DNA of 64,000 nt from a virus (Duplodnaviria; Heunggongvirae; Uroviricota; Caudoviricetes): IMG/VR virus record IMGVR_UViG_3300029305_003072. The stretch is one strand, 5' to 3'. Made by a program: the position numbers and the translations under genes. Below the pieces are notes generated by a model. That model made no database searches, was not told the origin of the DNA, and saw only the letters and a list, made by a program, of their open reading frames with translations. This document shows, one piece after another, positions 8,461-48,088 of the stretch. Numbering within the stretch: position 1 is the stretch's first letter; every line of letters starts with the position of its first letter.

Positions 8461-8487
8461 GGGAACATAATATTAAATTATGTTCCC
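8461..8487 (-). terminator. Hairpin (11-bp stem gggaacataat/attatgttccc) after the lysozyme gene
   Basis: Perfect inverted repeat with a U-rich tract on the minus strand. Confidence 0.45.
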
Positions 8488-8495
8488 TATTTATA

Positions 8496-9383: not shown

Positions 9384-9422
9384 AATTTCCTCCTAATATT
9401 TCTATCAGGCCGTCATTATTTA

Positions 9423-11159: not shown

Positions 11160-11223
11160 AGAATTCAACCTCCTTTCATGTAGACCACCAACTATTTATT
11201 TGAAAAATGTTTCAAATCAATTA

Positions 11224-18194: not shown

Positions 18195-19100
18195 TTAAAT
18201 TCCCAACTCCAATTTCAATTGTGGCTTCATAGGTTCATAATTCTCCATAGTGAAGTCATCAATTGTCATTTCAAAAAAGTTAGTTGCGTTTGGATTCAAT
18301 ACGAGCATTGGCTTGCGTTGCTTTTTCCATTCTTCGGGGTCTGACTGGAATTTCTCCCAATCAGCGTTAGATTTTTCATCAAAGCGACGAAGCATTTCAT
18401 CAGCAGCCTCAAGATGACGGTCATAAATCTGCTCATTAGCAACAACGTGAGTAAAAACGCCGGGCTGATAACCAGTATGACGAGCAATCATCATTAGTAA
18501 TGCAGCATATTGAATTTCATTAATTCCACCGGGGCCAGAAGCAGTAAGCATATCACCACTACGCTGAACAAGCATCATATCCAGGTACTCGCCACGAACA
18601 TTCCAAATAGTAAGGAACGCACATGGAGCTAAGCCAGGAGTCTCATGCAAGTCAGTTTCTTGCCATAGTGAAACAATCTTGCGGCGACCATATGGGTCAT
18701 TTTTAATATCTTCAATCAAATTATTGATTAAATCATAGCGGTCTACGGTTGCACCATATCGTTGTCCGATAGTGCCATCGCCAATATCCCATTCATCCCA
18801 CCAGGTAACTCCACGCTCATGCATCTCTTTGATGTTATTGGTTGGATGCTGATAAATCGTGAAAATTTCTCTAATACCAGTTTTCCAAGCCTGGGGTCTT
18901 AGAGTGCAAATGGGGAAATTACCTCTACTCAAATCATAAGTTCTAAAAGTATGATTTACAGAGTAGGTGTGTGCGGGAGTGCCGTCCGCATAATGAGGGC
19001 GGGGATTTTCATCCTTATATCCGTATTCTTTGATTTCCTTAATCATTGAATACATATACTGGTCAGCATTAGAAATAATTTTCATATTCTCAATCCTCAT
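18195..19100 (-). CDS. thyA: Thymidylate synthase ThyA
   Basis: Canonical ThyA length and motifs (PCHxxxQ-like region, RRKIVSLWQ). Confidence 0.9.
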   Translation of the reverse strand: MRIENMKIISNADQYMYSMIKEIKEYGYKDENPRPHYADGTPAHTYSVNHTFRTYDLSRGNFPICTLRPQAWKTGIREIFTIYQHPTNNIKEMHERGVTWWDEWDIGDGTIGQRYGATVDRYDLINNLIEDIKNDPYGRRKIVSLWQETDLHETPGLAPCAFLTIWNVRGEYLDMMLVQRSGDMLTASGPGGINEIQYAALLMMIARHTGYQPGVFTHVVANEQIYDRHLEAADEMLRRFDEKSNADWEKFQSDPEEWKKQRKPMLVLNPNATNFFEMTIDDFTMENYEPMKPQLKLELGI

Positions 19101-19362
19101 TTGACAAACTATATCCAGTTAATTTACAATCAATGTAATTTTGAACAAAAACTTCCAGTTCATCAATCATTACATCACCTTCGTACTCGCCATTAAAGAG
19201 CTGACTATAACTGATAAATTCAATACCAGTAATGCCATATGCGTGAGCTTTTGCTCTCATGGCATGTGGATTCATACAGGCAATTGCGGAATTAGTTTCC
19301 TTTGCCAAAAGCATCAATCTACTTGTCTTGCCGGAACTACGGCTATCAATAATACGATACAT
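19090..19362 (-). CDS. Hypothetical protein, 90 aa
   Basis: ORF. Its RBS AAAGGAG overlaps the stop codon of the upstream gene. Confidence 0.35.
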   Translation of the reverse strand: MYRIIDSRSSGKTSRLMLLAKETNSAIACMNPHAMRAKAHAYGITGIEFISYSQLFNGEYEGDVMIDELEVFVQNYIDCKLTGYSLSNED

Positions 19363-23108: not shown

Positions 23109-23380
23109 CTCCAGAAATCACTGAAGTCAAATATATTGACATAAAAATCTGGAACATCTTCTACTAATTGGACTCTATAACCATATACAAACATAGGTTC
23201 ATCAAAAAACATAATTTTATCATTTGGATTTATATTAATTCGATGTAAAATTTGAGCAAAAGTAAAATCGTTCATTCTGATTTCAATACCATTTTGTTCG
23301 CCAAACCACTCATAGAGTCGGGACATTTCTCGTCCCGACTCAACGATAGGCATACTTGGTCTGAAATAAATCGTTCTCAT
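23105..23380 (-). CDS. Hypothetical protein, 91 aa
   Basis: ORF only. Confidence 0.3.
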   Translation of the reverse strand: MRTIYFRPSMPIVESGREMSRLYEWFGEQNGIEIRMNDFTFAQILHRININPNDKIMFFDEPMFVYGYRVQLVEDVPDFYVNIFDFSDFWS

Positions 23381-27130: not shown

Positions 27131-27374
27131 AATAAAATTCCTCCATATCTTTCAACATTTCATTGAATTTTTTACTTTCATCGGGATGTGCGGCTTTATA
27201 TAAATTGACACTAGCCTCTGTCTTAAATGGGCCAATAACACTTTGAGGGCAATTTAATAGACAATATTCATCCATTAAATCTTGAGCTTGGATGATTTTA
27301 TCATCGCCCAAATCCCAAAACCAATATCCATGATACTCAGACATCGATATTTGCCCTCCAAGCGTTATCTTCAA
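27114..27374 (-). CDS. Hypothetical protein, 86 aa
   Basis: ORF only. Confidence 0.3.
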   Translation of the reverse strand: MKITLGGQISMSEYHGYWFWDLGDDKIIQAQDLMDEYCLLNCPQSVIGPFKTEASVNLYKAAHPDESKKFNEMLKDMEEFYYGECN

Positions 27375-29232
27375 TAAACTTCTTACGAGGAGTTACAGAC
27401 TCACCCATTAAGCTCATAAAGACATTTGCCACGGCGGCCGCATCTTCCATGGTAATCTGCTTTAAAGTACGAGTCTCCGCACTCATAACAGTTTCAGCCA
27501 TTTCATCAGGGTCCATTTCACCTAGACCCTTCATACGACCAAGTTCAAATTTCTTACTATTGGTTTTGCGGAATTCTTCAAGAGCAGCATCATCCTTTAA
27601 ATACTGGATTTTAGTTCCAATAGTTGCTTTATATAGTGGAGGTACAGCGGCATAAATATATCCCTTATCCAGTAGGTCTGGACAGAACTTCCAAATAAAA
27701 GTTAGGAATAGAACACGAATATGAGAACCATCAACATCAGCATCTGCGGTAATGATGAATTTACCATATCTCAACTTAGTTTCATCAACGATAATCTTAC
27801 CGTCCTTAACTTCTAAACCAAAAGCATCAACCATACCGCTGATTTCTTTATTCTGAAGAGCCTTATGTAGGTCGCACTTCAAAACATTTAGCGGCTTACC
27901 ACGAAGTTGGAATACTGCTTGAGTACCTCTGTCACGAGCTTCAATTGTTGTACCTGCAGCAGATTTACCCTCAACAATAAAGACTTCACATTTGTGACGC
28001 TCTTTAGAGCTGGCATCCGCAAGTACGTCAGGCATAATCACACGACGCTTGTTGTCAACTTTACGAACGGTTTCCTTGGCCTTTTTAGCTTTTTCACGGG
28101 CTGCACGTGCCAAAAGTGCTTTATCAACAATGGCTTTTGCGTCTTTGGGATTTGCGTCGAGCCATACTCGGATTTCACGGGCGGTTAAACGCTGAACCGC
28201 AGTTCTTGCTTCACTACTGGAAAGAACATCTTTCGTCTGGCCGGAGAAAACAGGGTCAGGCATAATGAAGGATAGAACCAGAACCAAACCTTCCTTCAAT
28301 TCTTCACCAGTAATATTAGCATCTTTCTCCTTTAGGAGCTTATTATCACGAGCATAGTCATTCATAGTTTGCGTGAGTGCGGTTCTAAAACCGGTTAAGT
28401 GGGTTCCCGCACTATTAGGAATAGAGTTGGTATAGAGCTTATACATATCAGTATAAGTATCATTATACTGCATAGCAATCTTAACACCAATTCTATCTTC
28501 CATATTTTCAGTATAGAATACGGAAGTTACCTTATTTTTATCTTTATTTAAATCATTGATATAATCTCGAATACCATTTTGAGAAGTGATAACTTCTTCT
28601 TCTTTATCTTCATATTTGAAGTTAAACACCATACCAGGAGATAGATAAGCTAGCTCTTGGATTTGTTTCTTTAGTGGGGCATATTCAAGACGAATTCCTT
28701 CTTTGAAGATAGTCTCATCGGGCTTGAAACTGATTGTAGTTCCGTGTAGTCCCTTTGTAAAAGGTTGCTCTTCATAAGATTTCAATTCACCTTTTTCAAA
28801 AACTGCGTAAGCAGATTTTCCATCACGCACAGATTCAACAGCAAAATAAGAAGATAGAGCATTTGTAGCCTTGGCACCGACACCGTTCATACCACCAGAA
28901 GTGTTATAACCAGTTTTACCATCACTATCAAATTTTGCGCCTGTATGAAGTTTTGTATAAACATTCACCAGAGTTTCACTACCATCTTCAGCTTTTCCAA
29001 ACGGAACACCACGACCATTATCTGCGATACGAATAACTCCATCGGAGCCAACCGTAATAATACAGTTAGTGCAATGTCCGTTTAAGTATTCATCAACTGC
29101 GTTAGAAATGATTTCGAGTGTGATGTGTCTAACACCATCAGGTCCAACTGAACCGATATACATACCTGGACGTAGTCGGATAGCTTCGATACCTTCTAGT
29201 GTTTTTATGTCTTTTACACCATAATCTGACAT
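27337..29232 (-). CDS. Type II topoisomerase B subunit (GyrB-like ATPase plus Toprim)
   Basis: GHKL ATPase motifs (EIISNAVDE, GLHGTT-like region) and a Toprim EGKSA motif. Confidence 0.85.
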   Translation of the reverse strand: MSDYGVKDIKTLEGIEAIRLRPGMYIGSVGPDGVRHITLEIISNAVDEYLNGHCTNCIITVGSDGVIRIADNGRGVPFGKAEDGSETLVNVYTKLHTGAKFDSDGKTGYNTSGGMNGVGAKATNALSSYFAVESVRDGKSAYAVFEKGELKSYEEQPFTKGLHGTTISFKPDETIFKEGIRLEYAPLKKQIQELAYLSPGMVFNFKYEDKEEEVITSQNGIRDYINDLNKDKNKVTSVFYTENMEDRIGVKIAMQYNDTYTDMYKLYTNSIPNSAGTHLTGFRTALTQTMNDYARDNKLLKEKDANITGEELKEGLVLVLSFIMPDPVFSGQTKDVLSSSEARTAVQRLTAREIRVWLDANPKDAKAIVDKALLARAAREKAKKAKETVRKVDNKRRVIMPDVLADASSKERHKCEVFIVEGKSAAGTTIEARDRGTQAVFQLRGKPLNVLKCDLHKALQNKEISGMVDAFGLEVKDGKIIVDETKLRYGKFIITADADVDGSHIRVLFLTFIWKFCPDLLDKGYIYAAVPPLYKATIGTKIQYLKDDAALEEFRKTNSKKFELGRMKGLGEMDPDEMAETVMSAETRTLKQITMEDAAAVANVFMSLMGESVTPRKKFIEDNAWRANIDV

Positions 29233-36970: not shown

Positions 36971-37558
36971 CTAAAGCATCGCAAGACACTTGGCGGTTTC
37001 TTCTCTCATCATTTCAATTGCATCATCCAAGAGGATAGGAGTGCAATTATTGGAGTCCATGCCCACATGGAACATATAAGGCATATCCTCATAAAATCTC
37101 TTCTGTTGATGAGTATGACCGAAGAGATTGATTAGATGCATTCTCAAATAAGGAGCTTTCTCCAAATTGGAAGTCATTGTAGGATGGTGGCTCAAATAGA
37201 AGTTGTACTTCTTGTACTTCATCATAGCCGCCGCAGGCTGAAGACCATTTGCAAGAGGCTCCAGCACAGTCACATTGGGCAACTGCTTATACAACTCAAT
37301 GCGGGCCGCAGTATCGTGGTTGCCAGGGATGATGGTAATGTGACCATTCAATCTCTTCAAGCAACTAATACCATGAGCATTGTCATTAAGCATTACATCG
37401 CCCAAATGGAAAACTTCATCTTCGGGATTGACCACAGAGTTCCATCTTCGGATTACCTCTTCATCATGCTCCTGGATGGAGGTGAAGCCACGAGGTCCGT
37501 AGAGGAATTCTCGGTCATGACCGAAGTGAGTATCACTCGTTACAAAAGTTCTACTCAT
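36971..37558 (-). CDS. Calcineurin-like metallophosphoesterase (probable phosphatase partner of the Pnk kinase)
   Basis: DTHFGH...GDVMLNDNAH...GNHD motifs. The start overlaps the kinase stop (ATGA coupling). Confidence 0.65.
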   Translation of the reverse strand: MSRTFVTSDTHFGHDREFLYGPRGFTSIQEHDEEVIRRWNSVVNPEDEVFHLGDVMLNDNAHGISCLKRLNGHITIIPGNHDTAARIELYKQLPNVTVLEPLANGLQPAAAMMKYKKYNFYLSHHPTMTSNLEKAPYLRMHLINLFGHTHQQKRFYEDMPYMFHVGMDSNNCTPILLDDAIEMMREETAKCLAML

Positions 37559-38100
37559 ACATTTACCTCCTTTGTGACACCCTCTGCGTTAACCGCGTAG
37601 ACGTGGGTGAAACCCTCTTCCGCAGTGGGATACGCAAAGGACTTAAACATATTATCAATCGCACTCACGGGAACTCTTGCTCGACCGGAGCGGAGTGAAT
37701 TTCTTGCCTGGCAAAGCTCACGAGGCGTTGTGAAACACACACAGTTAAGCTCACCAATATTATTTTTCTTGACTCGATTAAGAGTTTTGTTACGAGAACG
37801 CTTATTCAAATGAGTAGCGTCGATGTAAATAGTGTGAATATCTTCTCTTTCAAGGGTCTGATTGATGTAGTTAATGAAAGTGTCGAATACTTCATCCTCA
37901 TGGGAGAAATACTCTTCATCTTCACCAACAATGGCAAATCTCACATTGTCGCGAGAAATCCATTCAGAACCAGGCGTAATATTCGCACGCACCCACGTGG
38001 ACTTACCCGACGCAGGAGGCCCCGACAAAAGATAAACTTTCTTTAGCTTCATCCTTATACACCCCATTAGCAAAATTTTCACGAAACTCTTCAACTTCAT
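37555..38100 (-). CDS. P-loop polynucleotide 5-prime-kinase-like protein
   Basis: LLSGPPASGKSTW Walker A, small size, and T4-Pnk-kinase-like order of motifs. Confidence 0.55.
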   Translation of the reverse strand: MKLKSFVKILLMGCIRMKLKKVYLLSGPPASGKSTWVRANITPGSEWISRDNVRFAIVGEDEEYFSHEDEVFDTFINYINQTLEREDIHTIYIDATHLNKRSRNKTLNRVKKNNIGELNCVCFTTPRELCQARNSLRSGRARVPVSAIDNMFKSFAYPTAEEGFTHVYAVNAEGVTKEVNV

Positions 38101-38269
38101 CGAATGTCTTACACTCGATATGATTTACTTCGCATTTGCAGTGAACACAGTAGAGTTTCTTTCGGTGCATCCCCTCGTGCTTGAAACCTTGCTTACGCAT
38201 CAAGGGGATGCCCTTATTACCGCAGTTAATACAGTAAAAACTATGTTCTGCATAGCCCCTGCGGGCCAT
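38003..38269 (-). CDS. Zn-ribbon protein, 88 aa
   Basis: CINCGNKG...CVHCKC. Confidence 0.35.
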   Translation of the reverse strand: MARRGYAEHSFYCINCGNKGIPLMRKQGFKHEGMHRKKLYCVHCKCEVNHIECKTFDEVEEFRENFANGVYKDEAKESLSFVGASCVG

Positions 38270-38511
38270 TAAGACTTACTCCTTACAGTCACAGTATGAC
38301 CGAACAGGATATGGCACAGCCACTGGAGACCAAAAGCCTGCCAGTAACCAATCACCGGGAGTCCAAACAGACTCACAGCAATCCAGTTCCACAGCCACAT
38401 CGTAATAGCAGGACCCAGGAACAACAGGGCAATCAGACCGATGATGATGAGAATTGCGGCACCGCAACCAATTTCATCATGACTTGACCAAGCATTTCTA
38501 CTCATTTTCAT
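38269..38511 (-). CDS. Small membrane protein
   Basis: Two TM segments, with a promoter upstream. Confidence 0.35.
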   Translation of the reverse strand: MKMSRNAWSSHDEIGCGAAILIIIGLIALLFLGPAITMWLWNWIAVSLFGLPVIGYWQAFGLQWLCHILFGHTVTVRSKS

Positions 38512-38538
38512 TTCATTCCTTTCTTTATCTTACATATA

Positions 38539-38567
38539 TATTATATCATATTTTTTTATAAAAATCA
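38539..38567 (-). promoter_or_regulatory. Promoter cassette TTGATTTTTATAAAAAAATATGATATAAT
   Basis: Member of the near-identical 34-bp cassette family. Confidence 0.65.
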
Positions 38568-38568
38568 A

Positions 38569-39285
38569 TTAAGACAAATAGGGGTCAGAGCAGAAGACCT
38601 CTTCATCCCAAGTATCCAGGTTCAACAGAACACAGTAGCCAGTAAAGACGGCGCCGCAATCAATGCAGCATTTCTTTCCACCAGCGTACCAAAGTGCACC
38701 AGGTTCGATTTCTCCCATGCGGCAAGCAGGGTCAATATCTTCCAAAAGATATGGAATTGGAGTGTGTCCGTGAACAATAATCGCCTTTTGGAAGATTTCA
38801 TCTTCGGGCCAGGGGTCAAGGAAATGGTCTCTATCCCAAATTAAATCTTCAGTCCACACCCAGCGCATTTGACCTTGGTGGTCAGTTTGTGGAGTGAAAC
38901 CAGCATGAGAGAGATATACAGTTTCACCTTGTGTGTTGACATATGTTGCCTTATCAGGCAGTCCAGCAAGGCGGCCTTTCCAATTTTGCCAATCAGGCTC
39001 TTCCATAGCTTCCTCAAAGGTTTTCTTACCTCCGTTGCTACGAAGCAAAGCAAATGCAGAGCCATAGCCACGGCCCATTGCTTTAACTAGCATATCTTCA
39101 TGGTTGCCTTTTAAATAAATAAATTGGGGGTCATCAAGAATGGTTTTGATGCATTCCCAAGGGTGCGGTCCGCGGTCACCAGCGTCACCAAGGAAGTAAA
39201 CTACATCTTCTGGCTGAAGCATATCCTTAATAGCCTTATAGAAGTGTAGCATACCATGTAAATCAGAACAAGCATATACAGCCAT
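38569..39285 (-). CDS. PPP-family Ser/Thr protein phosphatase (lambda-PPase-like)
   Basis: GDLHG-like DLHG, GDAGDRG, GNHE and GHTP motifs. The start at 39285 has an AGGAGG RBS and overlaps the upstream stop (TAATG). Confidence 0.75.
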   Translation of the reverse strand: MAVYACSDLHGMLHFYKAIKDMLQPEDVVYFLGDAGDRGPHPWECIKTILDDPQFIYLKGNHEDMLVKAMGRGYGSAFALLRSNGGKKTFEEAMEEPDWQNWKGRLAGLPDKATYVNTQGETVYLSHAGFTPQTDHQGQMRWVWTEDLIWDRDHFLDPWPEDEIFQKAIIVHGHTPIPYLLEDIDPACRMGEIEPGALWYAGGKKCCIDCGAVFTGYCVLLNLDTWDEEVFCSDPYLS

Positions 39286-39506
39286 TATTTTACCTCCTTC
39301 TCTGGAATTAATACGAACATATAGCCCGTACATTTAGGAGGTTCACCCTCCTTAATCATTTTTGCAAGACTTTTTTCAAGGGATTCGATAGTTGTTTGCA
39401 TATATTCATGACCCTTTTCGTAGCCTGTAATCGCTGCGAAAGGAGGGTTATTAATTGGCATTTTCATACCATCTATAAAAATATATCCCTTAATTCCAAA
39501 CATCAA
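39285..39506 (-). CDS. Hypothetical protein, 73 aa
   Basis: ORF only. Confidence 0.3.
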   Translation of the reverse strand: MMFGIKGYIFIDGMKMPINNPPFAAITGYEKGHEYMQTTIESLEKSLAKMIKEGEPPKCTGYMFVLIPEKEVK

Positions 39507-40081
39507 CCTTTCGCCTCGCTTAAATAGTTTCTAATTTCTTCTCGATAATTATAAACATATCGAGGAACAAGTTTTTCAATCATCGGGTCGCTATTAGGCA
39601 TCTGAAAAGCCTGGCGAACCAATGTTGCACTAATACCTTCGAATCTATCAAGAAATTTAAATCGAAGTAACCATCTTTCATCTTGGGCAAACCAACCGAG
39701 CATAATACGGGGGTCATCACTGTAATAGATAGTCATATCAGAATCTTTGGTTTTACTAAACATCTTGATATAAAGATATCGGCCCCATGCGTGGCTATTG
39801 TCAGCTTCATCAGTCATATCAGCTAAAGGAAAAATATGAATATATTTCATTTGTTCTGTTGTAAAATGTTCGTGAAGAGAGCCTTCCAAAAGCATGATAC
39901 GAAAATCAATGGGTAGAGGATTGCGGACAGTGCCGCTCTTATCGGCAGAGCCAACGAAGATATAAAGGTCGCAATTATTTGCGGCGCAATCTTCATAAGC
40001 CTTTTGAACCATATTTAAATGTCCTCTATGAAAAGGCTGTGCTCTAAATAAAATAACACCTGTCATAATAATTCTCCTCAC
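39503..40081 (-). CDS. Nicotinamide-nucleotide adenylyltransferase (NadM-type cytidylyltransferase fold)
   Basis: GVILFRAQPFHRGHLNMV carries the (H/T)xGH motif. Size is about 190 aa. Confidence 0.7.
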   Translation of the reverse strand: MRRIIMTGVILFRAQPFHRGHLNMVQKAYEDCAANNCDLYIFVGSADKSGTVRNPLPIDFRIMLLEGSLHEHFTTEQMKYIHIFPLADMTDEADNSHAWGRYLYIKMFSKTKDSDMTIYYSDDPRIMLGWFAQDERWLLRFKFLDRFEGISATLVRQAFQMPNSDPMIEKLVPRYVYNYREEIRNYLSEAKG

Positions 40082-40395
40082 TTAATCACTAAATCTTTTG
40101 CTTCTTCTTGAGTGATACCGAAATAGTCTTCAAAAATTTCCATATCACCAGGGTCACAAGCCCCAGAACAGATACATTTTCCCTCATGCAACACCCAATA
40201 CCACATACCATCGGGGTATTTAATTAAATGCTCTATTAAAGCAAAAAAATCTTTAATATTGGGACAACCATATACAGCAACTAAACCCTCACCGGTAAAT
40301 TCATCTGTGAAATAAATATAAGGGTCTGCTACGACACGGTCTCGAATTTTATCTGTAAAAGCTACAATGATAGGAGCATCAATATTCACAGTCAT
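40078..40395 (-). CDS. Hypothetical protein, 105 aa
   Basis: ORF with a promoter upstream. Confidence 0.3.
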   Translation of the reverse strand: MTVNIDAPIIVAFTDKIRDRVVADPYIYFTDEFTGEGLVAVYGCPNIKDFFALIEHLIKYPDGMWYWVLHEGKCICSGACDPGDMEIFEDYFGITQEEAKDLVIK

Positions 40396-40428
40396 TTATA
40401 TCAATTCCTTTCTTAACTTTATATATAT

Positions 40429-40457
40429 ATTATAACATATTTTTTAATAAAAATCAA
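40429..40457 (-). promoter_or_regulatory. Promoter cassette (TTGATT-N17-TATAAT)
   Basis: Member of the conserved cassette family. Confidence 0.65.
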
Positions 40458-40467
40458 AGAGGAAGCA

Positions 40468-40995
40468 TTAAGCTTCCTCTAAGATATGGAGAATGTCGTC
40501 AACAATAGCATCATAACCAACTATATCGCCAGTGGAAATTGTATAAGGGAGTTGCTCCTTATTGAGCAATTCCAAAATTTCATCAGCAATCTTATCAGAT
40601 TCTTCTTCAGTCTGGAATCGTCCTACTGGATTATATTCTTTGGTGCGAACTAGGAAATAGTTTTTACAATTGTAGCTGTTCATTACTTTGCGGACGACAT
40701 TATTAAAATCTTCGCCCAAAACGGGGTCATGGTTATAAACTAAAGATAGAAGTAAGGGAGAGTCAGTAATAACAACATCAACTTTATCAGCACAACGGCT
40801 GATGCGGAAATATTGCTTACCAAAGATGTAAGCCTGATTATTGAAAACAGCTTTACTCTCTTCCCATACCTTATCCTTAGCGAACTCAGTTACCAGCTCT
40901 GCGTTAATACCACGCATTTTGAGCTGGCTGAAGATATATGCGGCACCAGTAGACTTACCAGTACCAGGAGAACCAAAAAGATTAACTAAAATCAT
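40468..40995 (-). CDS. P-loop kinase/ATPase (possibly a ribosylnicotinamide-kinase-like enzyme)
   Basis: LFGSPGTGKSTGA Walker A. Its position inside the NAD island is the only basis for the suggested substrate. Confidence 0.4.
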   Translation of the reverse strand: MILVNLFGSPGTGKSTGAAYIFSQLKMRGINAELVTEFAKDKVWEESKAVFNNQAYIFGKQYFRISRCADKVDVVITDSPLLLSLVYNHDPVLGEDFNNVVRKVMNSYNCKNYFLVRTKEYNPVGRFQTEEESDKIADEILELLNKEQLPYTISTGDIVGYDAIVDDILHILEEA

Positions 40996-41511
40996 TTATT
41001 TTCCTCCATATGATAATTTGAAATCAGTTTTTTCTGTTTTTTTATAAGTAGATGCATTTTTAGCATAGGTACTTTCTGCTTCGCGCAATTCTTGGCGCAC
41101 ATCCATTAAAATTTTACCAAGAATATTTTTACCTTCGATTTCTGCACACTTGGGGCAAACACAATTACCCCAAGTATTATCATGCCAAGTATTGCCTTCT
41201 ACTAATTCTTCATCACCAGTGTCTAAAAGTTTTTGTTTTAAATCGGGGTCAGAAAATTTGTATTTCAAACCATCATGCATTACACTAATCTTAATACGCT
41301 CCCAGTCAGGGCGCAAAGAGCAGTGTCGCCCCATTCGCTTTGCCTGTCCAGGTGTTTTTGCTTTTGCAATAGCTTTAAATTCACTTTCACTCTTGGTTTT
41401 CCAAGCTTGGAACCAGTGTTCCACAGTAGGAAAAGTTACACCATCTACAGTAAAAGGAGAGGGGAAAAAGTTGCTTAGGAAAGCGTACTTTCCATCAAAC
41501 ATCGCAATCAT
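40996..41511 (-). CDS. NADAR (YbiA/DUF1768) domain protein
   Basis: FLSNFFPSPF...HWFQAWK is the NADAR signature. Confidence 0.7.
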   Translation of the reverse strand: MIAMFDGKYAFLSNFFPSPFTVDGVTFPTVEHWFQAWKTKSESEFKAIAKAKTPGQAKRMGRHCSLRPDWERIKISVMHDGLKYKFSDPDLKQKLLDTGDEELVEGNTWHDNTWGNCVCPKCAEIEGKNILGKILMDVRQELREAESTYAKNASTYKKTEKTDFKLSYGGK

Positions 41512-41523
41512 AGCGATACCTCC

Positions 41524-42330
41524 TTAGAAACTAAATGGACTTTCTTCTTTGTTGCTGTTTTCGTGCCAAGCACGAGTCTTGATACGAATATAGGGCATGC
41601 AAATATCTCTTTTATGGAGATTTCTGGTGTGGCGCTCTTCAATCTTGCGAAGAGTCTCATAGTCGGGAAGTACTTCATCCAAAAGATAAGCATCCAGTAC
41701 ATCATAAGGAATACCAGTGTTATCTTCATCGGTCTTACCACTCATACCATCACCAGGTGCCTTATGAACCAGGTGTGCGGGCAACTCATCCAGATTGTCG
41801 CCAATCTCAATGACCTCACGGACGCAGTAATCCTTTAAGATAGCGAAGTCGCCAGCCAGGTCACCATACTTGGTAGTGTAGCCGATATACAGTTCGGATT
41901 TATTGCCAGTATTGATTACTCGACCGCCCATATCTGCGGCAACTGCGTAAAGAGTTGCCATACGGATACGAGCAGGCGTATTTGTATTAACTGCGGGATT
42001 TTTATAGGCGTCACCCACCATTCCCGCAAACATCTTGGTGATAGGGCCAATATTGTAGGCTCTATAGGGAATATGAAGAATGTTGCATACTTCCACAGAG
42101 TCCTTAATATCCTTCTGGTCACCATCGGGCATCAGCACACCAAAAACTCTTTCGGGACCCAGTGCTCGGACAAGCAGGGCGGCCGCAATCGTGGAATCCT
42201 TACCACCGGAAATACCAATAACTGCCTTGGTATTCTCATTACCATTCTTGACAAAATATTTCTTAATTTCATCAACAATGTGCTGGATTTCCTCTTCAAC
42301 ATCAATTACTTTGAAATCAAAATCACCCAT
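41524..42330 (-). CDS. nadE: NH3-dependent NAD+ synthetase NadE
   Basis: PP-loop GISGGKDSTIAAAL and the correct length. Confidence 0.85.
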   Translation of the reverse strand: MGDFDFKVIDVEEEIQHIVDEIKKYFVKNGNENTKAVIGISGGKDSTIAAALLVRALGPERVFGVLMPDGDQKDIKDSVEVCNILHIPYRAYNIGPITKMFAGMVGDAYKNPAVNTNTPARIRMATLYAVAADMGGRVINTGNKSELYIGYTTKYGDLAGDFAILKDYCVREVIEIGDNLDELPAHLVHKAPGDGMSGKTDEDNTGIPYDVLDAYLLDEVLPDYETLRKIEERHTRNLHKRDICMPYIRIKTRAWHENSNKEESPFSF

Positions 42331-42332
42331 AT

Positions 42333-42839
42333 TTACGCCTCCAGTTTGTAAATATATACATCATAGTCCTCAGAAAGGGCTTCCCAAATCATCGTTTTAA
42401 TTACTTCCCAATTTGCGCCACCAAGGCCGCAGCCAATATGGTCAGGAAAGCCAATTTTACTGCCGTGGGGTACCTGGTCCCTAATCTTACCAAGACAAGA
42501 CCAGAAGCCATCATAAGAAGTATATCTCTTACCATCATAGCCATAATATTGCTGTGCAAACATATTTATCACAGTCTTGTCTACATCAACAGGAACTAAC
42601 TGAATCTCGCCCAGAAGGGTATCAGTCCAGTCGGGTCCGTTTTCCATCCCGCCGCACATTTGATAGATTTCTTCTTCTCTCTTGGTGCAGAGGGCAATAT
42701 AATCTTCATATACTCGATGCCATCTTGTTTTAATGTTCTTGGCGATGCCAGAGGCCATGCGCCCCTGGCAATTCACCTGATGGCAGTAATAATCCAATTT
42801 CGCTTCGAGCATATCACCTTTAATAAAGTGAATACTCAT
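42333..42839 (-). CDS. Macro domain protein (ADP-ribose/O-acetyl-ADP-ribose processing)
   Basis: HQVNCQGRMASGIA and a later GCGLGG motif. Confidence 0.75.
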   Translation of the reverse strand: MSIHFIKGDMLEAKLDYYCHQVNCQGRMASGIAKNIKTRWHRVYEDYIALCTKREEEIYQMCGGMENGPDWTDTLLGEIQLVPVDVDKTVINMFAQQYYGYDGKRYTSYDGFWSCLGKIRDQVPHGSKIGFPDHIGCGLGGANWEVIKTMIWEALSEDYDVYIYKLEA

Positions 42840-44386
42840 TACGCAATCTCCGGATACAGACGAGCACGAATTTCGTGGAAATTTTCAATATTCTTCAGAA
42901 AACCATCTGCGAAGGAGGTGCGAAGCAGGGTTTCATCATCGGGAACCCATTCGCCATAGCCGTCAATGCATACAAACTCATCCTTGTCGGGGTGAATCTG
43001 AACCGCGCAGCAACCTTTATGGGACTTCTTCAGTCCGCCCTCGTCAGTCTTGGGGTCCTTATAGATAGGAACTTCCTTGCCGCCAAAGATACCGTGAGTA
43101 GCCTTCATTGCCATGCCCCAGGTATCACGAGTCAGAACAGTGAACTTATTGTCGGGGCTGAACAGAGCGTGGAAGCAGAAAGCACCAACACCGAAGACCA
43201 CATTGGTAGCCGCGAAGCCCAGCTGAGCCAGAGTTTCGTAAATTTCACGAACCTTATTCAGAGTGCAGCCGTCACCATAAATCAGACCAATATGGGGGTC
43301 CAGAACCTTATAGCCAGCTTCATTGATGGTGCCACCAAACTCATCCCACAGTTTCTGGATAGTGCCGATGGTAATGGAAACCATGTCGCCAGAGTCAGGA
43401 CGGATAAGCAGCTTGCCATTGTGAGCCAAAATTTCAGCCTTGCAGGCAGGAATGATATTGTCTACCATATTCCAGTAGTCATAGGTATCAGATACCATAG
43501 AGAAACTGGTATTGGGGTAAATTTCAGTCAGCATACGCTTCACAAAAGTGATTTCATCGCCGTCGATTGCGAAATTCGCAGCCATAACAGAGTGTTCAGT
43601 GGAAACGGCACCCAGACCCAGCTTATGCTCGGCGCACTGTGCGTCGTAATAGTCGTCCAGGTAGGGTAGCGCAGGAATGGTAGAGGTCTTATTGAAAGAC
43701 AGGAGCCAAGAAGCGGAGCAACGAGTTGCGTCTTCCAGGCAGCTCATACCACGGAAACCGAAGTCAGCCATTGCCATAAAGGGGTCGGCGCCGGGGGCAG
43801 TCATATCGTAATACTTCTTTGCAATCTTGTGGTATTCCCAACCAACGGTCGCATATGCACACATAGGCCACACTTCAGTCTGGAGCAGGCACTCAACCCA
43901 CTGAACCAGCCATGCGAAACGAGGGTGAGTATTTCTCATCTCAACGATGGGAACACCCATATTGACAACAGTGCCTTCGGGCAAGGCGCGGATTTCCAGG
44001 GGCAGATAACCCAGCTCATGCAGTTCAACGATGCGATTACGAGCGACATTGTTGATACCCAGGTGAGCATCAATATAATGGTCATACTCATACATCACCC
44101 AGTCCAGAGGAGTGGCGAAGAAGCTGTCGAAGCCTTCCTTCATATCAGTGAGGAAAGGATGAACGCCCCAAACGACCATCTTGGGGAAATTCTCATTCAT
44201 AGCCTTTCGAGGAGTCAGGTAAGAAGCCAGAAACTCCTGATTGTCAGGATACATCAGGGGGTGGCACTGCTTGTAAGAGTCGCTGTACAGCATAATCATT
44301 CTACGAAAATCCATATTATCAATTTCCTTTCTTTTTTCTCGCAATGCGGATTCGTTTACTTTCCATCTTGTTAGGAATATGCTCAC
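42839..44386 (-). CDS. nadV: Nicotinamide phosphoribosyltransferase (NAMPT/NadV), 515 aa
   Basis: YSDSYKQCH (DSYK motif), plus length and overall NAPRTase-superfamily layout. Confidence 0.85.
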   Translation of the reverse strand: MSIFLTRWKVNESALREKRKEIDNMDFRRMIMLYSDSYKQCHPLMYPDNQEFLASYLTPRKAMNENFPKMVVWGVHPFLTDMKEGFDSFFATPLDWVMYEYDHYIDAHLGINNVARNRIVELHELGYLPLEIRALPEGTVVNMGVPIVEMRNTHPRFAWLVQWVECLLQTEVWPMCAYATVGWEYHKIAKKYYDMTAPGADPFMAMADFGFRGMSCLEDATRCSASWLLSFNKTSTIPALPYLDDYYDAQCAEHKLGLGAVSTEHSVMAANFAIDGDEITFVKRMLTEIYPNTSFSMVSDTYDYWNMVDNIIPACKAEILAHNGKLLIRPDSGDMVSITIGTIQKLWDEFGGTINEAGYKVLDPHIGLIYGDGCTLNKVREIYETLAQLGFAATNVVFGVGAFCFHALFSPDNKFTVLTRDTWGMAMKATHGIFGGKEVPIYKDPKTDEGGLKKSHKGCCAVQIHPDKDEFVCIDGYGEWVPDDETLLRTSFADGFLKNIENFHEIRARLYPEIA

Positions 44387-44567
44387 GGGTCGCCAGTTCA
44401 GCTTTTACACGAGCCTGGTAGGCTCTCTTGGCGGAATAATCTGCATCTTCCCAGTCATAATCGCCCCAGCGATATGTATGTCGCAGATGTGCCAGAAGCT
44501 GGCGAGTTTTCAGATTTTTCATCTGCTCTTCGGAGAGGATTCCGCAGTCTCTTTCAAAGTTACTCAT
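44319..44567 (-). CDS. Hypothetical basic protein, 82 aa
   Basis: ORF with a promoter upstream. Confidence 0.3.
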   Translation of the reverse strand: MSNFERDCGILSEEQMKNLKTRQLLAHLRHTYRWGDYDWEDADYSAKRAYQARVKAELATREHIPNKMESKRIRIARKKKGN

Positions 44568-44595
44568 TTAATCACTTCCTTTACTTTCTATATAT

Positions 44596-44624
44596 ATTAT
44601 ATCATATTTTTTTATAAAAATCAA
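44596..44624 (-). promoter_or_regulatory. Promoter cassette (TTGATT-N17-TATAAT)
   Basis: Conserved cassette. A hairpin terminator lies immediately 5-prime on the minus strand. Confidence 0.65.
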
Positions 44625-44655
44625 AAAAGCCCCTTGAGTCTCAAGGGGCTTTTAC
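44623..44655 (-). terminator. Rho-independent terminator
   Basis: Stem agcccctt/aaggggct followed by a T-run. Confidence 0.65.
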
Positions 44656-45057
44656 TTATTCCACTCTATCTTCATATAAGGTGAGGCCGCATTCTCCAGA
44701 TTCGGGGAACCACTCGCAAATAGAAGTGATTTTACCATCATAATCAGTGAAAATAACATATTCCATTCCGTCACTCATTACGAGGAAATATGTCCAACAA
44801 GCGCACCTATACTCTTGGAGCATAAACACATCGGGAACGTGTGCAAGAACTGTGCCAATAAAATCTTCATTCCCAATTCTCGGACCAATCATATCCTCTA
44901 AAATGAGAATAGCGTTTTCGTTAAGGTCGGGAATGGATTCAACAATTGTTTCCGTAGACGATGGGGTTTCTTCATAAGGGGTGTCGCAAGCAATAAGTGA
45001 TACACAAAGGCAAATTGCCAAAACAAAGCAAATAAAAAGTTTAATCGCTTTCTTCAT
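44656..45057 (-). CDS. Putative lipoprotein
   Basis: Signal peptide with lipobox LIAC. Confidence 0.45.
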   Translation of the reverse strand: MKKAIKLFICFVLAICLCVSLIACDTPYEETPSSTETIVESIPDLNENAILILEDMIGPRIGNEDFIGTVLAHVPDVFMLQEYRCACWTYFLVMSDGMEYVIFTDYDGKITSICEWFPESGECGLTLYEDRVE

Positions 45058-45827
45058 TTCACTTCTCCTTCGGGAATTTCAATTAAATTGAAGACATCTT
45101 GAATATCTTCATGGAAGACCAGCTCAGCTCTGAAATCTGCTACTGTAGGGTCTCTGTTAATGACAACCAGATGACTATCATCGCAGTAGAATGGCAGGCT
45201 TGCGGCAGGTTGAACTACCAGGGAGCTACCAACCACAATCATCAGGTCGGCTTGAGCAGCTGCCACCTGGGCATTGCTCCAAGCAGGAAATGCCAGCCCT
45301 TCACCATACAGGACAATATCGGGTCGGATAGTGCCTTCGCCGCACAGAGGGCATTTAGGAATATCATTTAGATTATTGTAGTTTCCATCCAATACATCTT
45401 CTGGAATAAACAAGTCGTGACCACAATCCTGGCAATACCAACGACTCATAGTACCGTGGACAGCATATATCCTATCCATGCCAGTGTCTTCGTGTAAACC
45501 ATCAATATTTTGTGTAATCACAGACACTTTTCTTGCTTCCTGCAGCTCAGAAATTCTTTGATGGGCGATGGTTGGCTTAGCTCCACGAAAATCCATTTTT
45601 TCACGCAGATACTCGAAAAAAGCCTGTTCGTGCTTCTGAAGGCAGGTGCTGCTCAGCATATATTCCGGACTCTTGCCTCCAATATACGGACTTGCGTACA
45701 GACCATCCGCACTGCGGAAATCCGGAATACCGGAGCCAGTTGAGATACCGGCTCCGGTAAAAAACACGATATGCCGAGCGTCCGCAATTATCTTATTTAG
45801 TTTCGCAATACGCTCATTAAAATCCAT
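45054..45827 (-). CDS. Sir2-family NAD-dependent deacylase (sirtuin/CobB-like)
   Basis: FFTGAGISTGSGIPDFRS, Zn ribbon CQDCG...CPLCG, and catalytic HG. Confidence 0.8.
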   Translation of the reverse strand: MDFNERIAKLNKIIADARHIVFFTGAGISTGSGIPDFRSADGLYASPYIGGKSPEYMLSSTCLQKHEQAFFEYLREKMDFRGAKPTIAHQRISELQEARKVSVITQNIDGLHEDTGMDRIYAVHGTMSRWYCQDCGHDLFIPEDVLDGNYNNLNDIPKCPLCGEGTIRPDIVLYGEGLAFPAWSNAQVAAAQADLMIVVGSSLVVQPAASLPFYCDDSHLVVINRDPTVADFRAELVFHEDIQDVFNLIEIPEGEVK

Positions 45828-45830
45828 ATC

Positions 45831-46349
45831 TTACTCTCCCATTTGTGCCTTGACGCAAGCATCGCCTGCAGCCATAGCTTCTTTCAGTGCCTCTTGGGCA
45901 ACCTTCATATCGCAGCCCTCTTTCTTCAAGAAAGGCATCACATTCTTCATAATGACACCCTTATTACCAGAGCAGATAGAAACTGCGTTACAAACTCCCC
46001 AGTAGTTAATCATCTTGACAATTTCATCCTTGTCGTCGATAACCTTAGGAGCATACTCCAAAGCGATAGAGAGCTTCATCAGATATTCAGCCTTACGAGC
46101 CTTCAATTCTGCATCTCTCTTGGGGTCTGTTGCCCCATCGGGACAGGTATCGACCATCTCTTGGACAGTCTTCTTATACTTCAACATCACTTCATCGACA
46201 AAAGCATCTGTGATTTCTACTCTCTTTTTACCAGAGGTAGCAGCTTTGTCGATTGTGGCGACCATATCAGCCAGAGTCAAACGTCTCAGCTTATCGCCGT
46301 TTTTCAAGGCAGTTGTCATATCTGCCTTAATAGACTCATACTTATTCAT
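45831..46349 (-). CDS. YqeY/GatB-like domain protein
   Basis: Loose similarity to the GatB_Yqey family (ALKNGDKLRRLTL). Confidence 0.4.
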   Translation of the reverse strand: MNKYESIKADMTTALKNGDKLRRLTLADMVATIDKAATSGKKRVEITDAFVDEVMLKYKKTVQEMVDTCPDGATDPKRDAELKARKAEYLMKLSIALEYAPKVIDDKDEIVKMINYWGVCNAVSICSGNKGVIMKNVMPFLKKEGCDMKVAQEALKEAMAAGDACVKAQMGE

Positions 46350-46367
46350 TGGAGTCTACTCCTTTCT

Positions 46368-47195
46368 TTAATGATATACAGTAATCCATTCCTTCCAGTA
46401 AGGGTCATAACCTTCGTTGAATAACTCTTCGGGGAAAATGGACTTAGTGGTATAGACATGGTCAACAAGACCATCAGTGCTGGCCATTTCACCCAAAATA
46501 ATAGTCTTTTCGCAATGGGTGACATACAGACTTACGCTCTTGGCGCCAGCAGCCTTAAGAGCTTTAGCAGAATGGTAGAAAGTACCACCACGAGAACAGA
46601 TATCGTCAACGATAAGAACATTCTTATCCTTAACTGCTTCGGCGTTGATAATATCCAGGCCCTGAATCTGACCGGTCTTCCAATCTCGCTTTTTCATTCC
46701 AAAAGCGTAAGGAATATCAAACCCACCAGAATAACGCTTCATAGCACCTTCATCGGGGAAGAAGAGTACATCAGCCTGAGCCTCAAAAATTGCATCCAGA
46801 ACATAATTAGTAATGGGCATTTCTTCTACATTGTTCAGAAGGGCCAGGCTTACGTTGCTATGTGCGTCACGCACATGAACAACCTTGAAATTCAGAGAGT
46901 TGATAACTTCGCAGAAATACTTGAGAGTGAAAACATCTTCATCAGACTTCACTCGGTCCATGCGGGCATGGGGGATGTAAGGCATTTCCAGAACAACATC
47001 GCTGTAAGAATAGACGCGGTCCAGATGGCGCTTTACGCAAATCAAAGAGAAAAGCTCTGCATCATTTTCATAATACCACTCGACCAGAATATTACCGCGA
47101 GTGTCAAATTCATCCCCATTGGGGTCAAACTTCATCAACAGAGTGCCATCGGGGAACTGACCCTGCTTAATTTCGACATTACCTACTTTAATCAT
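46368..47195 (-). CDS. prs: Ribose-phosphate pyrophosphokinase (PRPP synthetase)-like
   Basis: N-terminal FPDGT and the PRTase motif VLIVDDICSRGGTF. Confidence 0.7.
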   Translation of the reverse strand: MIKVGNVEIKQGQFPDGTLLMKFDPNGDEFDTRGNILVEWYYENDAELFSLICVKRHLDRVYSYSDVVLEMPYIPHARMDRVKSDEDVFTLKYFCEVINSLNFKVVHVRDAHSNVSLALLNNVEEMPITNYVLDAIFEAQADVLFFPDEGAMKRYSGGFDIPYAFGMKKRDWKTGQIQGLDIINAEAVKDKNVLIVDDICSRGGTFYHSAKALKAAGAKSVSLYVTHCEKTIILGEMASTDGLVDHVYTTKSIFPEELFNEGYDPYWKEWITVYH

Positions 47196-47484
47196 ACATT
47201 TTCCTCCATGTTTCTCCCATTCCGAGTTCTAAATCGGCACTTCCATTCCAACCGAATACTCGGAAAGCTCGTAATTTGATATATGCTTTATATCTTTTGA
47301 AATTGCCCTCGCAGTATAGAAAAGCTGAAGGACAATATGGCAAATCTTCTTCTTTCAATTCTGAAAGCTGTTCACGCGACATTAAGCAGCTTTCTCGCAA
47401 AGAGTTTAGATGATGTTGACCTGGCACAGCTTCATCGCCTCCAGAGCAGTCTTGTGGCTCTCGGGGGTAACACAGGCGCAGCAA
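47188..47484 (-). CDS. Hypothetical protein (overlaps the pncA 3-prime end; doubtful)
   Basis: ORF only. Confidence 0.2.
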   Translation of the reverse strand: MLRLCYPREPQDCSGGDEAVPGQHHLNSLRESCLMSREQLSELKEEDLPYCPSAFLYCEGNFKRYKAYIKLRAFRVFGWNGSADLELGMGETWRKMYD

Positions 47485-47996
47485 TCAGCAATCACATTCA
47501 CAGGAACCTCGGGCAGCGTAGCCTTAGCCAGAATGGCATTGGACATAACACAGATTCCGGTACACAGACCCATCAGAGTAACCTCTTCAACACCCAGACG
47601 CTCATTGATATCGAACAAAATGTTCTGCAGTTCGACAGAGCCAAAAGTAGGCTTTTCAACCTTGATAGGGTTAATGTCGGTCATGGGGTAGACCTCATAA
47701 GCGTCGGCATAGGTGTCGATAACATTGATGTAAGCCTTGAACACTTCATCAACAATGGAATGACCGGCAGTGCCCTTGATGCAATGACGAACCGGCAGAT
47801 TTTTACCCTCCAGGGTATCCATGTAATTTTCGGGATGAGTATCCTTGGTGAAGATAACCACAGTATCGGGAGCTGCCATCTGCTCAATGGTCTCTGCGAC
47901 CAGCGGAACGATAGCCTGCGCCTCCTTGGTGCCCAGGGAACCATCAACGAAATCCTTCTGCATATCTACGACAATAAGAACTTTCATATAATTCAT
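47406..47996 (-). CDS. pncA: Nicotinamidase/isochorismatase-family hydrolase (PncA-like)
   Basis: VLIVVDMQKDF and the catalytic Cys region GLCTGICV. Confidence 0.75.
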   Translation of the reverse strand: MNYMKVLIVVDMQKDFVDGSLGTKEAQAIVPLVAETIEQMAAPDTVVIFTKDTHPENYMDTLEGKNLPVRHCIKGTAGHSIVDEVFKAYINVIDTYADAYEVYPMTDINPIKVEKPTFGSVELQNILFDINERLGVEEVTLMGLCTGICVMSNAILAKATLPEVPVNVIADCCACVTPESHKTALEAMKLCQVNII

Positions 47997-48020
47997 ATCC
48001 TTTCCTTTATCTTACATATA

Positions 48021-48049
48021 TATTATAACATATTTTTTTATAAAAATCA
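48021..48049 (-). promoter_or_regulatory. Promoter cassette upstream of pncA
   Basis: Conserved cassette with terminator hairpin 48054-48074. Confidence 0.65.
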
Positions 48050-48074
48050 AAAAAGGGATGGGTTGCCCCATCCC
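48048..48074 (-). terminator. Rho-independent terminator after the MVP-like gene
   Basis: Stem gggatgggg/ccccatccc followed by a T-run. Confidence 0.7.
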
Positions 48075-48088
48075 TTAGAAATTTTTAA

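Follow-up and report, generated by a model that had tools for sequence, protein, structure and literature searches.

A conserved PncA-Adps-Namat-NadE gene set in large phages as a candidate nicotinate-based pathway of NAD+ reconstitution

NAD+ depletion is among the commonest antiviral strategies of bacteria, and phages are so far known to counter a broad range of such systems in one way only, by reconstituting NAD+. Here we analyze an island of genes for NAD+ and ADP-ribose (ADPR) metabolism in a viral genome fragment, a stretch of 64,000 nucleotides from the IMG/VR record IMGVR_UViG_3300029305_003072 (Caudoviricetes), which we call the window. A preliminary description made from the letters of the window had named ten gene families in this island, namely an NMN adenylyltransferase (NMNAT), a P-loop kinase, NADAR, NadE, a macro domain, NAMPT, Sir2, YqeY, a phosphoribosyl pyrophosphate (PRPP) synthetase (Prs) and a PncA-like nicotinamidase; profile searches (Pfam, NCBIfam and PHROG) recovered all ten, contiguous on the minus strand at 39503-47996 (Table 1). 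They belong to a longer minus-strand run of genes at 36.9-50.6 kb, in which the gaps are short or overlapping and most starts are preceded by Shine-Dalgarno-like sequences, and because of this the island's open reading frames (ORFs) are intact genes and not the fragments that the same description had considered as a refutation. Three more small ORFs of 82, 105 and 133 aa lie inside the island; none of these, nor a 73-aa ORF next to it, has a Pfam or PHROG match, and the idea that the 105-aa ORF is a RyR-domain (RyDEP) accessory found no support. Two starts were moved: the 515-aa ORF of the transferase (42839-44386) begins at its codon 25, giving 491 aa, a length backed by 120 homologs of about 490 aa, and the NMNAT ORF (39503-40081) was shortened to 187 aa on the basis of an identical protein (P0241). 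At the nucleotide level the island has no megablast match among 50,697 phage records, and its phage is not one of them.

The 275-aa protein named as a PRPP synthetase matches Pfam Pribosyltran (36 bits) and PHROG 619 (256 bits). It scores 83.6 bits against the curated Prs model TIGR01251, under the cut-off of 113, and lies far under the cut-offs of all Prs equivalog models. An all-against-all BLAST comparison gave it 83-186 bits to seven phage Adps-type proteins, against 37-53 bits to E. coli Prs; over all comparisons its scores to phage Adps proteins, the biochemically validated ICP1 type among them, are 73-186 bits. In tblastn it matched 1,489 phage records, most of the listed matches being annotated as ribose-phosphate pyrophosphokinase; the matches include the Felixounavirus, Kayvirus and Bastillevirinae groups, in which a Namat-like gene adjoins, and, at 36.8% identity, the Adps of ICP1, which is the protein that has been crystallized and assayed (PMC13586617). 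All residues and features singled out in that structural study, i.e. Phe18, Arg87, His121, Asp161, Lys185 on the beta-hairpin, Asp212/213, the DDIC loop and Phe221, are present in the window protein, which lacks the C-terminal helices and extension of Prs. A remodeled PP loop likewise characterizes Adps. It is best classed with Adps, the ADP-ribose pyrophosphokinase of the NAD+ reconstitution pathway NARP1, and not with canonical Prs.

A comparable reassignment applies to the protein called NAMPT. This transferase matches NAPRTase (91 bits) and NAMPT_N (29.5 bits), and passes the cut-off of NF006629 (413 against 405). Its best relatives in the PDB are the SpbetaL1 Namat structures 9W5X/9W5W (338 bits), together with 9KE8 (288 bits), human NAMPT scoring 169 bits; among phage proteins, matches with an adjoining Adps gene reach about 300 bits at 37% identity, and T4-like Nampt about 135 bits at 28%. 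In a neighbor-joining tree with Nampt as the outgroup it falls on the Namat side. Hence it groups with Namat, the ligase of NARP1, and not with the KVP40-type Nampt, and given both assignments the pair is NARP1-like, not NARP2-like.

The substrate pocket of this Namat-like protein is altered. The aligned pocket segment reads FNKTSTIP in the window, FTGTDTIP in SpbetaL1 Namat and FKGTDTVA in human NAMPT, such that Asp215 of SpbetaL1 Namat (human Asp219) is replaced by Ser211, and by Ala in two other clades. The Ala242 site is occupied by Ser238, His187 is replaced by Ala and Gly213 by Lys; the catalytic His, Arg306/Asp308, Phe189/Arg192 and the first aromatic residue of the clamp are kept. Of the NARP1 nicotinamide-pocket signature (Phe189, Arg192, Asp215, Ala242, Arg306), then, the Phe and both Arg are retained and Asp215 and Ala242 are changed. 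When 16 representatives of the Ser/Ala type were compared with 40 of the Asp/Glu type, ten more columns separated the two groups, including Ala242->Ser (Ser in 16/16 Ser/Ala-type representatives), His187->Gly/Ala/Ser and Gly213->Lys/Asn/Arg. The KTSTIP motif and an insertion in the clamp helix are common to all 120 readable close homologs; Asp or Glu is kept in seven Namat proteins without PncA or NadE neighbors and in two Nampt proteins. A D219S mutant of human NAMPT is said to accept nicotinate. In the Namat structure Asp215 hydrogen-bonds nicotinamide, the D215A mutation lowers activity 8-fold, and the seven residues that line the nicotinamide pocket include Asp215 and Ala242 (PMC12774641); a review citing mutagenesis likewise has Asp219 setting the substrate specificity of NAMPT (PMC7096376).

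To place these differences in genomic context we collected 267 loci on viral contigs, with four different Namat types as seeds, and the 80 best matches in a bacterial genome collection, with neighbors scored within 10 kb and 8 kb, respectively. Among the 171 viral loci with a Ser/Ala-type transferase, PncA is found at 168, NadE at 164, Adps at 170, a macro gene at 137 and NMNAT at 11. The 96 viral loci of the Asp/Glu type have Adps at 92 and neither PncA nor NadE at any; a macro gene was seen at 3 and NMNAT at 0 of the 80 of these 96 loci considered for the latter two. All 80 best matches from the bacterial collection have Ser or Ala at this site, the genes mostly running PncA-Adps-Namat-NadE, and have PncA at 73, NadE at 71, Adps at 74, a macro gene at 11 and NMNAT at 1. 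Nicotinamidase and NadE are thus near 89-98% of the Ser/Ala-type loci in these viral and bacterial sets. The bacterial loci are mostly from Clostridia and include isolates, such as Lachnospiraceae bacterium A4, Thomasclavelia cocleata, Pseudoruminococcus massiliensis and Ruminococcus sp.; the single isolate locus inspected is prophage-like, with a DNA methylase, an AAA_24 ATPase and a TnpB transposase. NadE itself occurs in 45 of the 50,697 phage records, the best matches being human-gut phages with the same module. Five phage contigs (L010, L011, L012, L269 and L270) carry a related NadE with no Namat or Adps up to 10 kb on either side, and therefore NadE alone, which in phages has other contexts too, is not diagnostic.

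The module takes a compact form in MT835544.1, an operon of Adps, Namat, macro, NadE and PncA with Ala at the Asp215 site, and in Phass-1 (OQ749652.1, locus L009), where PncA, Adps, an Ala-type Namat, a 140-aa ORF and NadE follow one another at 8465-12903 with overlapping stops and starts. Phass-1 is a gut phage of a genetic-code-15 clade and has the tightest module; a large tRNA array adjoins it and a NADAR gene lies 6 kb away (18748-19191). In the window 2.0 kb and four genes separate the Adps-like gene from the Namat-like one, both on the same strand, and in most relatives the two are adjacent. PncA and NadE form the conserved core with this pair: the earlier view that they go beyond what is described for NARP1 or NARP2 stands, and its view of them as an added branch gives way to this conservation.

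PncA and NadE stand at the two ends of the proposed chemistry. The PncA-like protein matches Pfam Isochorismatase (86 bits) without reaching the NCBIfam equivalog cut-off; its best PDB match is the nicotinamidase of P. horikoshii (1IM5), and alignment with 1IM5 and 3PL1 shows the catalytic Asp and Cys and the DxH...H metal site to be kept, and the Lys probably so. NadE matches NAD_synthase (173 bits) and passes the cut-off of TIGR00552 (169.6 bits). The macro protein, whose start overlaps the stop of the transferase, has no Pfam-A match at E <= 0.01, and was recognized through the DarG N-terminus in NCBIfam (53.5 bits), PHROG 335 'phosphatase' (112.8 bits) and macro proteins in the PDB. Its match to the ADP-ribose 1''-phosphate phosphatase 6LFU (E = 5e-5) is no stronger than that to the DarG macro domain 5M31 (E = 1e-6), and we propose that it is either an Adpp-like ADPR-1''-phosphate phosphatase or an ADP-ribosyl hydrolase, in both cases feeding free ADPR. 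The 171-aa NADAR protein (Pfam NADAR, 113 bits), with counterparts near 40 of the 171 Ser/Ala-type viral loci, is probably an accessory ADP-ribosyl hydrolase. Both belong to ADP-ribosyl-processing families and may also reverse the ADP-ribosylation of targets.

The island seems to be, as initially suggested, of the NAD+-rebuilding and ADP-ribose-handling kind that phages use against NAD+-depleting immunity. We favor, with moderate confidence, the reading that it restores NAD+ from what immune NADases leave behind, in the manner of NARP1 but rewired through nicotinate (a nicotinate-rewired NARP1-AP). In such a scheme the PncA-like nicotinamidase would first convert the released nicotinamide to nicotinate, and the Adps-like kinase would use ATP to turn ADPR into ADPR pyrophosphate (ADPR-PP). 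The Namat-like transferase, having lost the amide-binding Asp and gained two Ser, would then join nicotinate and ADPR-PP to give nicotinic acid adenine dinucleotide (NaAD), which NadE would amidate to NAD+; free ADPR would probably come from the macro and NADAR proteins, acting on ADPR-1''-phosphate or on ADP-ribosylated targets. We infer every substrate and product here from family membership, residue changes, gene linkage and conservation, which are themselves observed. Only if the transferase joins nicotinate and ADPR-PP do the four core enzymes form a gapless route from the two NADase products to NAD+. Furthermore, a PncA in the same module would compete for substrate with a nicotinamide-using ligase, which argues for the use of nicotinate; PncA and Nampt are rarely found together in bacterial genomes (PMC9316036). 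The frequency of the macro gene in turn argues that ADPR, and not ribose-5-phosphate, is the precursor of the sugar donor. To the broader proposition that the four genes PncA, Adps, Ser/Ala-type Namat and NadE make up one more pathway of NAD+ reconstitution, so far undescribed, in which a Nampt-family enzyme makes NaAD from nicotinate and ADPR-PP, and that this set is widespread among the phages of gut Clostridia and in prophage-like regions of their genomes, we give an even chance of being right.

Several points weigh against this reading. A Nampt-family enzyme using nicotinate with ADPR-PP is not reported in the literature searched, and the benefit of a longer route that costs more ATP is unexplained. 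One may speculate that hosts deamidate nicotinamide fast, that the charged base is trapped in the cell, that nicotinamide is removed as a sirtuin inhibitor, or that an irreversible last step pulls the flux. The neighbor-joining tree carries no support values, and the covariation counts come from three related, query-seeded clades and so represent few independent events. The adenine clamp is also a concern: a 10-aa insertion breaks the clamp-helix signature GSxxxxxxTRD (in full, GS-X-phi-X-phi-X-phi-TRD, with aromatics at positions 3 and 7), the window having GAFCFH, the insertion and then VLTRD, such that the position-3 aromatic alone aligns with confidence; moreover, the third residue of the SCL loop (Lys-Ala-Met) is Met, not Arg, Lys or Tyr. 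Because these features depart from the Namat signature, the donor specificity of the window transferase, ADPR-PP or PRPP, appears less certain than that of the Phass-like clade, which keeps the clamp GAYTYQYVTRD. An AlphaFold2 (AF2) model of the transferase, with a predicted confidence (pLDDT) of 60 and values <50 at residues 377-437, is too poor for inspection of the pocket. Finally, in the window the Adps-like and Namat-like genes fall into different predicted transcription units.

The same pocket changes and the same linkage to PncA and NadE would also fit a phage version of the Preiss-Handler pathway running on PRPP, in which the Prs-like protein makes PRPP, the Ser-type enzyme makes nicotinic acid mononucleotide (NaMN), the NMNAT or the NadD of the host converts this to NaAD, NadE completes NAD+, and PncA feeds in nicotinate. 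Namat retains about half of the PRPP activity of human NAMPT (PMC12774641), and a survey of gut jumbo phages annotates Preiss-Handler clusters in them (PMC11662467). Its first step is at odds with a Prs-like protein that sits in the Adps clade and fails the Prs model. An adenylyltransferase is absent from the neighborhood of 160 of the 171 related loci, and therefore such a module would rarely be self-sufficient; the ADPR-handling macro gene at 137 of them is of no use to a PRPP route, and the canonical adenine clamp is kept in the Phass-like clade. We consider this alternative unlikely, and the share of probability that we leave to it is owed to the window phage having both an NMNAT and the most diverged clamp, i.e. 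a remodeled one.

A different question is that of purpose, for the same chemistry, whether it uses ADPR-PP or PRPP, could serve to sustain LigA and Sir2 and to recycle ADP-ribose, with no part in counter-immunity. Both of these NAD+ consumers are encoded in the window, the LigA gene bearing out the NAD-dependent DNA ligase of the preliminary description; the 'NAD-jumbo phages' have been interpreted in this way (PMC11662467), and NARP1-like modules occur in bacterial assemblies too (here and in PMC12774641). Yet Sir2 is linked at only 5 of the 171 loci, the core would consume both products of immune NADases, the homologous NARP1 and NARP1-AP experimentally defeat Thoeris, DSR, SIR2-HerA, SEFIR and aRES, and the one bacterial locus inspected is prophage-like, all of which makes a housekeeping purpose improbable. 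Least tenable, and in our estimate very improbable, is the NARP2-like route of the preliminary description, from nicotinamide through nicotinamide mononucleotide (NMN) to NAD+ by NAMPT and NMNAT with Prs giving PRPP and PncA and NadE as a minor side branch, which agrees with the family-level annotations, with the presence of an NMNAT and with the known action of the KVP40 Nampt and Nmnat, but founders on a Prs-like protein of the Adps clade, a transferase that lies outside the Nampt clade (135 bits to T4-like Nampt against >300 to NARP1 Namats) and lacks the amide-binding Asp, a PncA in the same regulon that would take nicotinamide away, and an NMNAT that is single-domain, unlike KVP40 NatV, and is the least conserved member (11 of 171 loci), PncA and NadE being the most conserved.

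The remaining enzymes of the island are of more restricted distribution, and NMNAT, the kinase and Sir2 are lineage-specific accessories of the window's phage lineage. NMNAT matches CTP_transf_like (25.7 bits), an archaeal NMNAT model at 50.5 bits, which is under the NCBIfam cut-off, and NMNATs of the PDB (E = 1e-8), and has the HxGH (PFHRGH) and ISxTxxR (ISATLVR) motifs. It could close a PRPP-dependent side route from NaMN to NaAD, or rebuild NAD+ from NMN once the pyrophosphate bond has been cleaved, as is known from the Metis system. The kinase (AAA_28, 42.5 bits) is conserved in the closest relatives only. It had been considered a possible nicotinamide riboside kinase, and we examined it as a ribosylnicotinamide kinase of a split NadR; this was rejected, as hhalign against the kinase domain of E. 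coli NadR covered only 24 columns at 7% probability. Foldseek searches with its AF2 model (pLDDT 88.6) had thymidylate and deoxynucleoside kinases as best matches (TM about 0.6), and the model is that of a generic nucleoside/nucleotide-kinase fold. Sir2 matches SIR2 (153 bits), passes the cut-off of the CobB equivalog NF001752 (253.7 against 221), and has the QNIDGLH motif and two Cys pairs in its translation; it is most simply seen as an accessory consumer of NAD+. The YqeY match (27 bits) is exactly at the Pfam cut-off; a YqeY-like gene is near the NAD module in two distant phage lineages, at 5 of 80 window-like and 6 of 11 Phass-like loci (within L093-L103). The 133-aa ORF has a lipoprotein-type signal (...SLIAC), and a 4-nt overlap couples its translation to Sir2.

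The slot of the transferase varies between relatives. In close syntenic relatives on contigs of about 200 kb (L265-L268) the other island genes are 57-97% identical to those of the window, and a different, Ala-type transferase allele, called as 594 aa on L265-L267, occupies the same slot. Two contigs with an identical NMNAT (L369 and L370) end inside or beside NadE. The slot looks like a hotspot at which either alleles are exchanged or assemblies break.

The window has 9 copies of a promoter-like motif of 35 nt, TTGATTTTTATNAAAAAATATGNTATAATATATAT, against 0 in 100 shuffles. All nine copies are on the minus strand at 38534-63034, and none is in the half with the replication genes (1-38 kb). 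Three of them, each right after a hairpin terminator, divide the island into three units, which are predicted from consensus matches only. The distribution of TTGATTTTTATNAAAAAATATGNTATAATATATAT suggests a separately timed regulon that would comprise the NAD island, the sigma factor gene and the RNA-repair genes.

Outside the island the window encodes PolIII alpha, DnaB, gyrase A and B, LigA and a tail-lysozyme multidomain lysin, along with a sigma-70 factor (regions 1.2 to 4), an RNA ligase and a Thg1-like protein. In view of these replication and other phage-type genes the window looks like part of a large phage, apparently of the gut; metagenomic contigs of 160-406 kb, as well as viral contigs of IMG/VR, encode island proteins that are identical or nearly so. 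Extended -10 promoters, GGAGG ribosome-binding sites and the dominance of Clostridia among the homologs point to a host in the Bacillota. Flanking the island is a possible RNA-repair set, consisting of an AAA_33 polynucleotide-kinase-like protein, at least three metallophosphoesterases, an RNA ligase that has a PHA02142 OB domain, and a Thg1-like homolog of tRNA-His guanylyltransferase. A 502-aa SPFH/Band 7/flotillin-like protein is encoded beside the island, and relatives carry two such genes (11509-12453 and 15549-17078 on L265). Directly upstream of the island is the gene for an 838-aa protein with a Major Vault Protein (MVP) shoulder (83 bits) and Vault_3 repeats and no PHROG match; vault-protein homologs lie within 10 kb of the module at 5 of 80 window-like and 4 of 11 Phass-like viral loci. 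A link from this protein to a preprint on a vault-related NADase was dropped, as the preprint does not mention MVP.

Table 1. Genes and predicted transcription signals of the island and its surroundings (positions in the 64-kb window)
Feature	Positions	Strand	Basis or remark
Predicted unit 1: PncA, Adps, YqeY, Sir2, 133-aa ORF	48050 to 44625		
Hairpin terminator before promoter-like motif 1	48053-48076		
Promoter-like motif 1 (TTGATT-17-TATAAT with TG)	48016..48050	-	predicted start of unit 1
PncA-like nicotinamidase, 196 aa	47406..47996	-	Pfam Isochorismatase
Adps-like Prs homolog, 275 aa	46368..47195	-	Pfam Pribosyltran; PHROG 619
YqeY-like protein, 172 aa	45831..46349	-	Pfam YqeY
Sir2/CobB-type NAD-dependent deacylase, 257 aa	45054..45827	-	SIR2; NF001752
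133-aa ORF, lipoprotein-like N-terminus (LIAC)	44656..45057	-	no profile match
Hairpin terminator	44625-44653	-	unit 1/unit 2 boundary
Promoter-like motif 2	44590-44624	-	unit 1/unit 2 boundary
Predicted unit 2: 82-aa ORF, transferase, macro, NadE, NADAR, kinase	44624 to 40458		
82-aa ORF	44319..44567	-	no Pfam or PHROG match
Namat-like Nampt-family transferase, 491 aa	42839..44314	-	NAPRTase + NAMPT_N
Macro-domain protein, 168 aa, TARG1/DarG/Poa1p-like class	42333..42839	-	NCBIfam, PHROG, PDB
NH3-dependent NAD synthetase NadE, 268 aa	41524..42330	-	NAD_synthase; TIGR00552
NADAR domain protein, 171 aa	40996..41511	-	Pfam NADAR
P-loop nucleoside/nucleotide kinase (AAA_28), 175 aa	40468..40995	-	AAA_28; PHROG
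Hairpin terminator	40458-40480	-	unit 2/unit 3 boundary
Promoter-like motif 3	40423-40457	-	unit 2/unit 3 boundary
Predicted unit 3: 105-aa ORF, NMNAT, 73-aa ORF, phosphoesterase	40457 to 38569		
105-aa ORF, syntenic in close relatives	40078..40395	-	no Pfam or PHROG match
Archaeal/NadM-type NMN (or NaMN) adenylyltransferase, 187 aa	39503..40066	-	CTP_transf_like; PDB
MVP-like protein, 838 aa	48089-50605	-	MVP shoulder; Vault_3 repeats
Possible RNA-repair set	36971-39333, 51348-52766, 55979-56869	-	
SPFH/Band 7/flotillin-like protein, 502 aa	34834-36342	-	
Sigma-70 family factor, gyrase A/B, PolIII alpha	54596-55516, 23377-25752, 27337-29232, 2441-6403	-	
LigA	21063-23054		

Among the described systems the closest is NARP1 (Adps and Namat; SpbetaL1, Bas63, Fado and ICP1), which the window resembles in having an Adps-clade kinase near a Namat-clade transferase in a phage. 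It differs in the altered pocket, in the 10-aa insertion in the clamp helix, in the four genes that part the core pair, and in the nicotinamidase and NadE linked to its transferase type, which are found at 0 of the 96 Asp/Glu-type viral loci. With NARP1-AP, whose layout of Adps, macro Adpp and Namat was described from Vibrio phage Gary (bioRxiv 10.64898/2026.01.28.702374), it shares a macro gene directly beside the transferase; the window protein is similar to the ADPR 1''-phosphate phosphatases of the Poa1p type, and equally so to the de-ADP-ribosylases DarG and TARG1. The likeness to NARP2 of KVP40 (the Nampt NadV and the Nmnat-Nudix protein NatV) lies in a Nampt-family and an NMN adenylyltransferase-family enzyme occurring in one phage; however, the window transferase is on the Namat side, and its NMNAT is a single domain of 187 aa that seldom accompanies the module in other loci. 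NARP1 and NARP2 did not occur together in any phage studied by Osterman et al., and the window phage is no strict exception, because it has one Nampt-family gene. The resemblance to NARP3 (PnuC and a NadR-like protein; Bas30) is superficial: an NMNAT lies two genes from an AAA_28 kinase, as if NadR were split, but these are separate genes and the kinase has no detectable similarity to the NadR kinase domain. No PnuC match was obtained among the proteins scanned with Pfam, i.e. every island ORF and part of the other ORFs of the window.

Preiss-Handler salvage (PncA, PncB, NadD and NadE) is similar in its two ends, with deamidation first, re-amidation of NaAD last and homologous PncA and NadE; the middle of the pathway in the window is instead the Adps-like and Namat-like pair. 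Models for a PncB-type NAPRTase gave 18-23 bits against cut-offs of 297-503, and no NadD was found in the island. In the literature searched there was nothing linking Namat or Adps with NadE, nicotinamidase or NaAD, and no NARP4 or NARP5 variant of this type. Should the proposed chemistry be right, the Nampt family would gain a new enzyme activity through this use of nicotinate, and both halves of broken NAD+ would be recyclable through the deamidated branch. The 'NAD-jumbo phages' of animal guts (Microbiome 2024, PMC11662467) are comparable in their large size, their gut habitat and their clusters of NAD+ synthesis genes, and in having LigA and NAD+ consumers; their annotation is at the KEGG level, and the results sections follow standard salvage and Preiss-Handler routes, with no mention of Adps, Namat, pocket changes or the four-gene linkage. 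NAD+ reconstitution would, if the present reading is correct, extend to the large and mostly uncultured phages of gut Clostridia. Current annotation gives the Asp/Glu and the Ser/Ala kinds the same names, 'nicotinamide phosphoribosyltransferase' and 'ribose-phosphate pyrophosphokinase', and the residue at this one pocket position offers a simple rule for separating the two.

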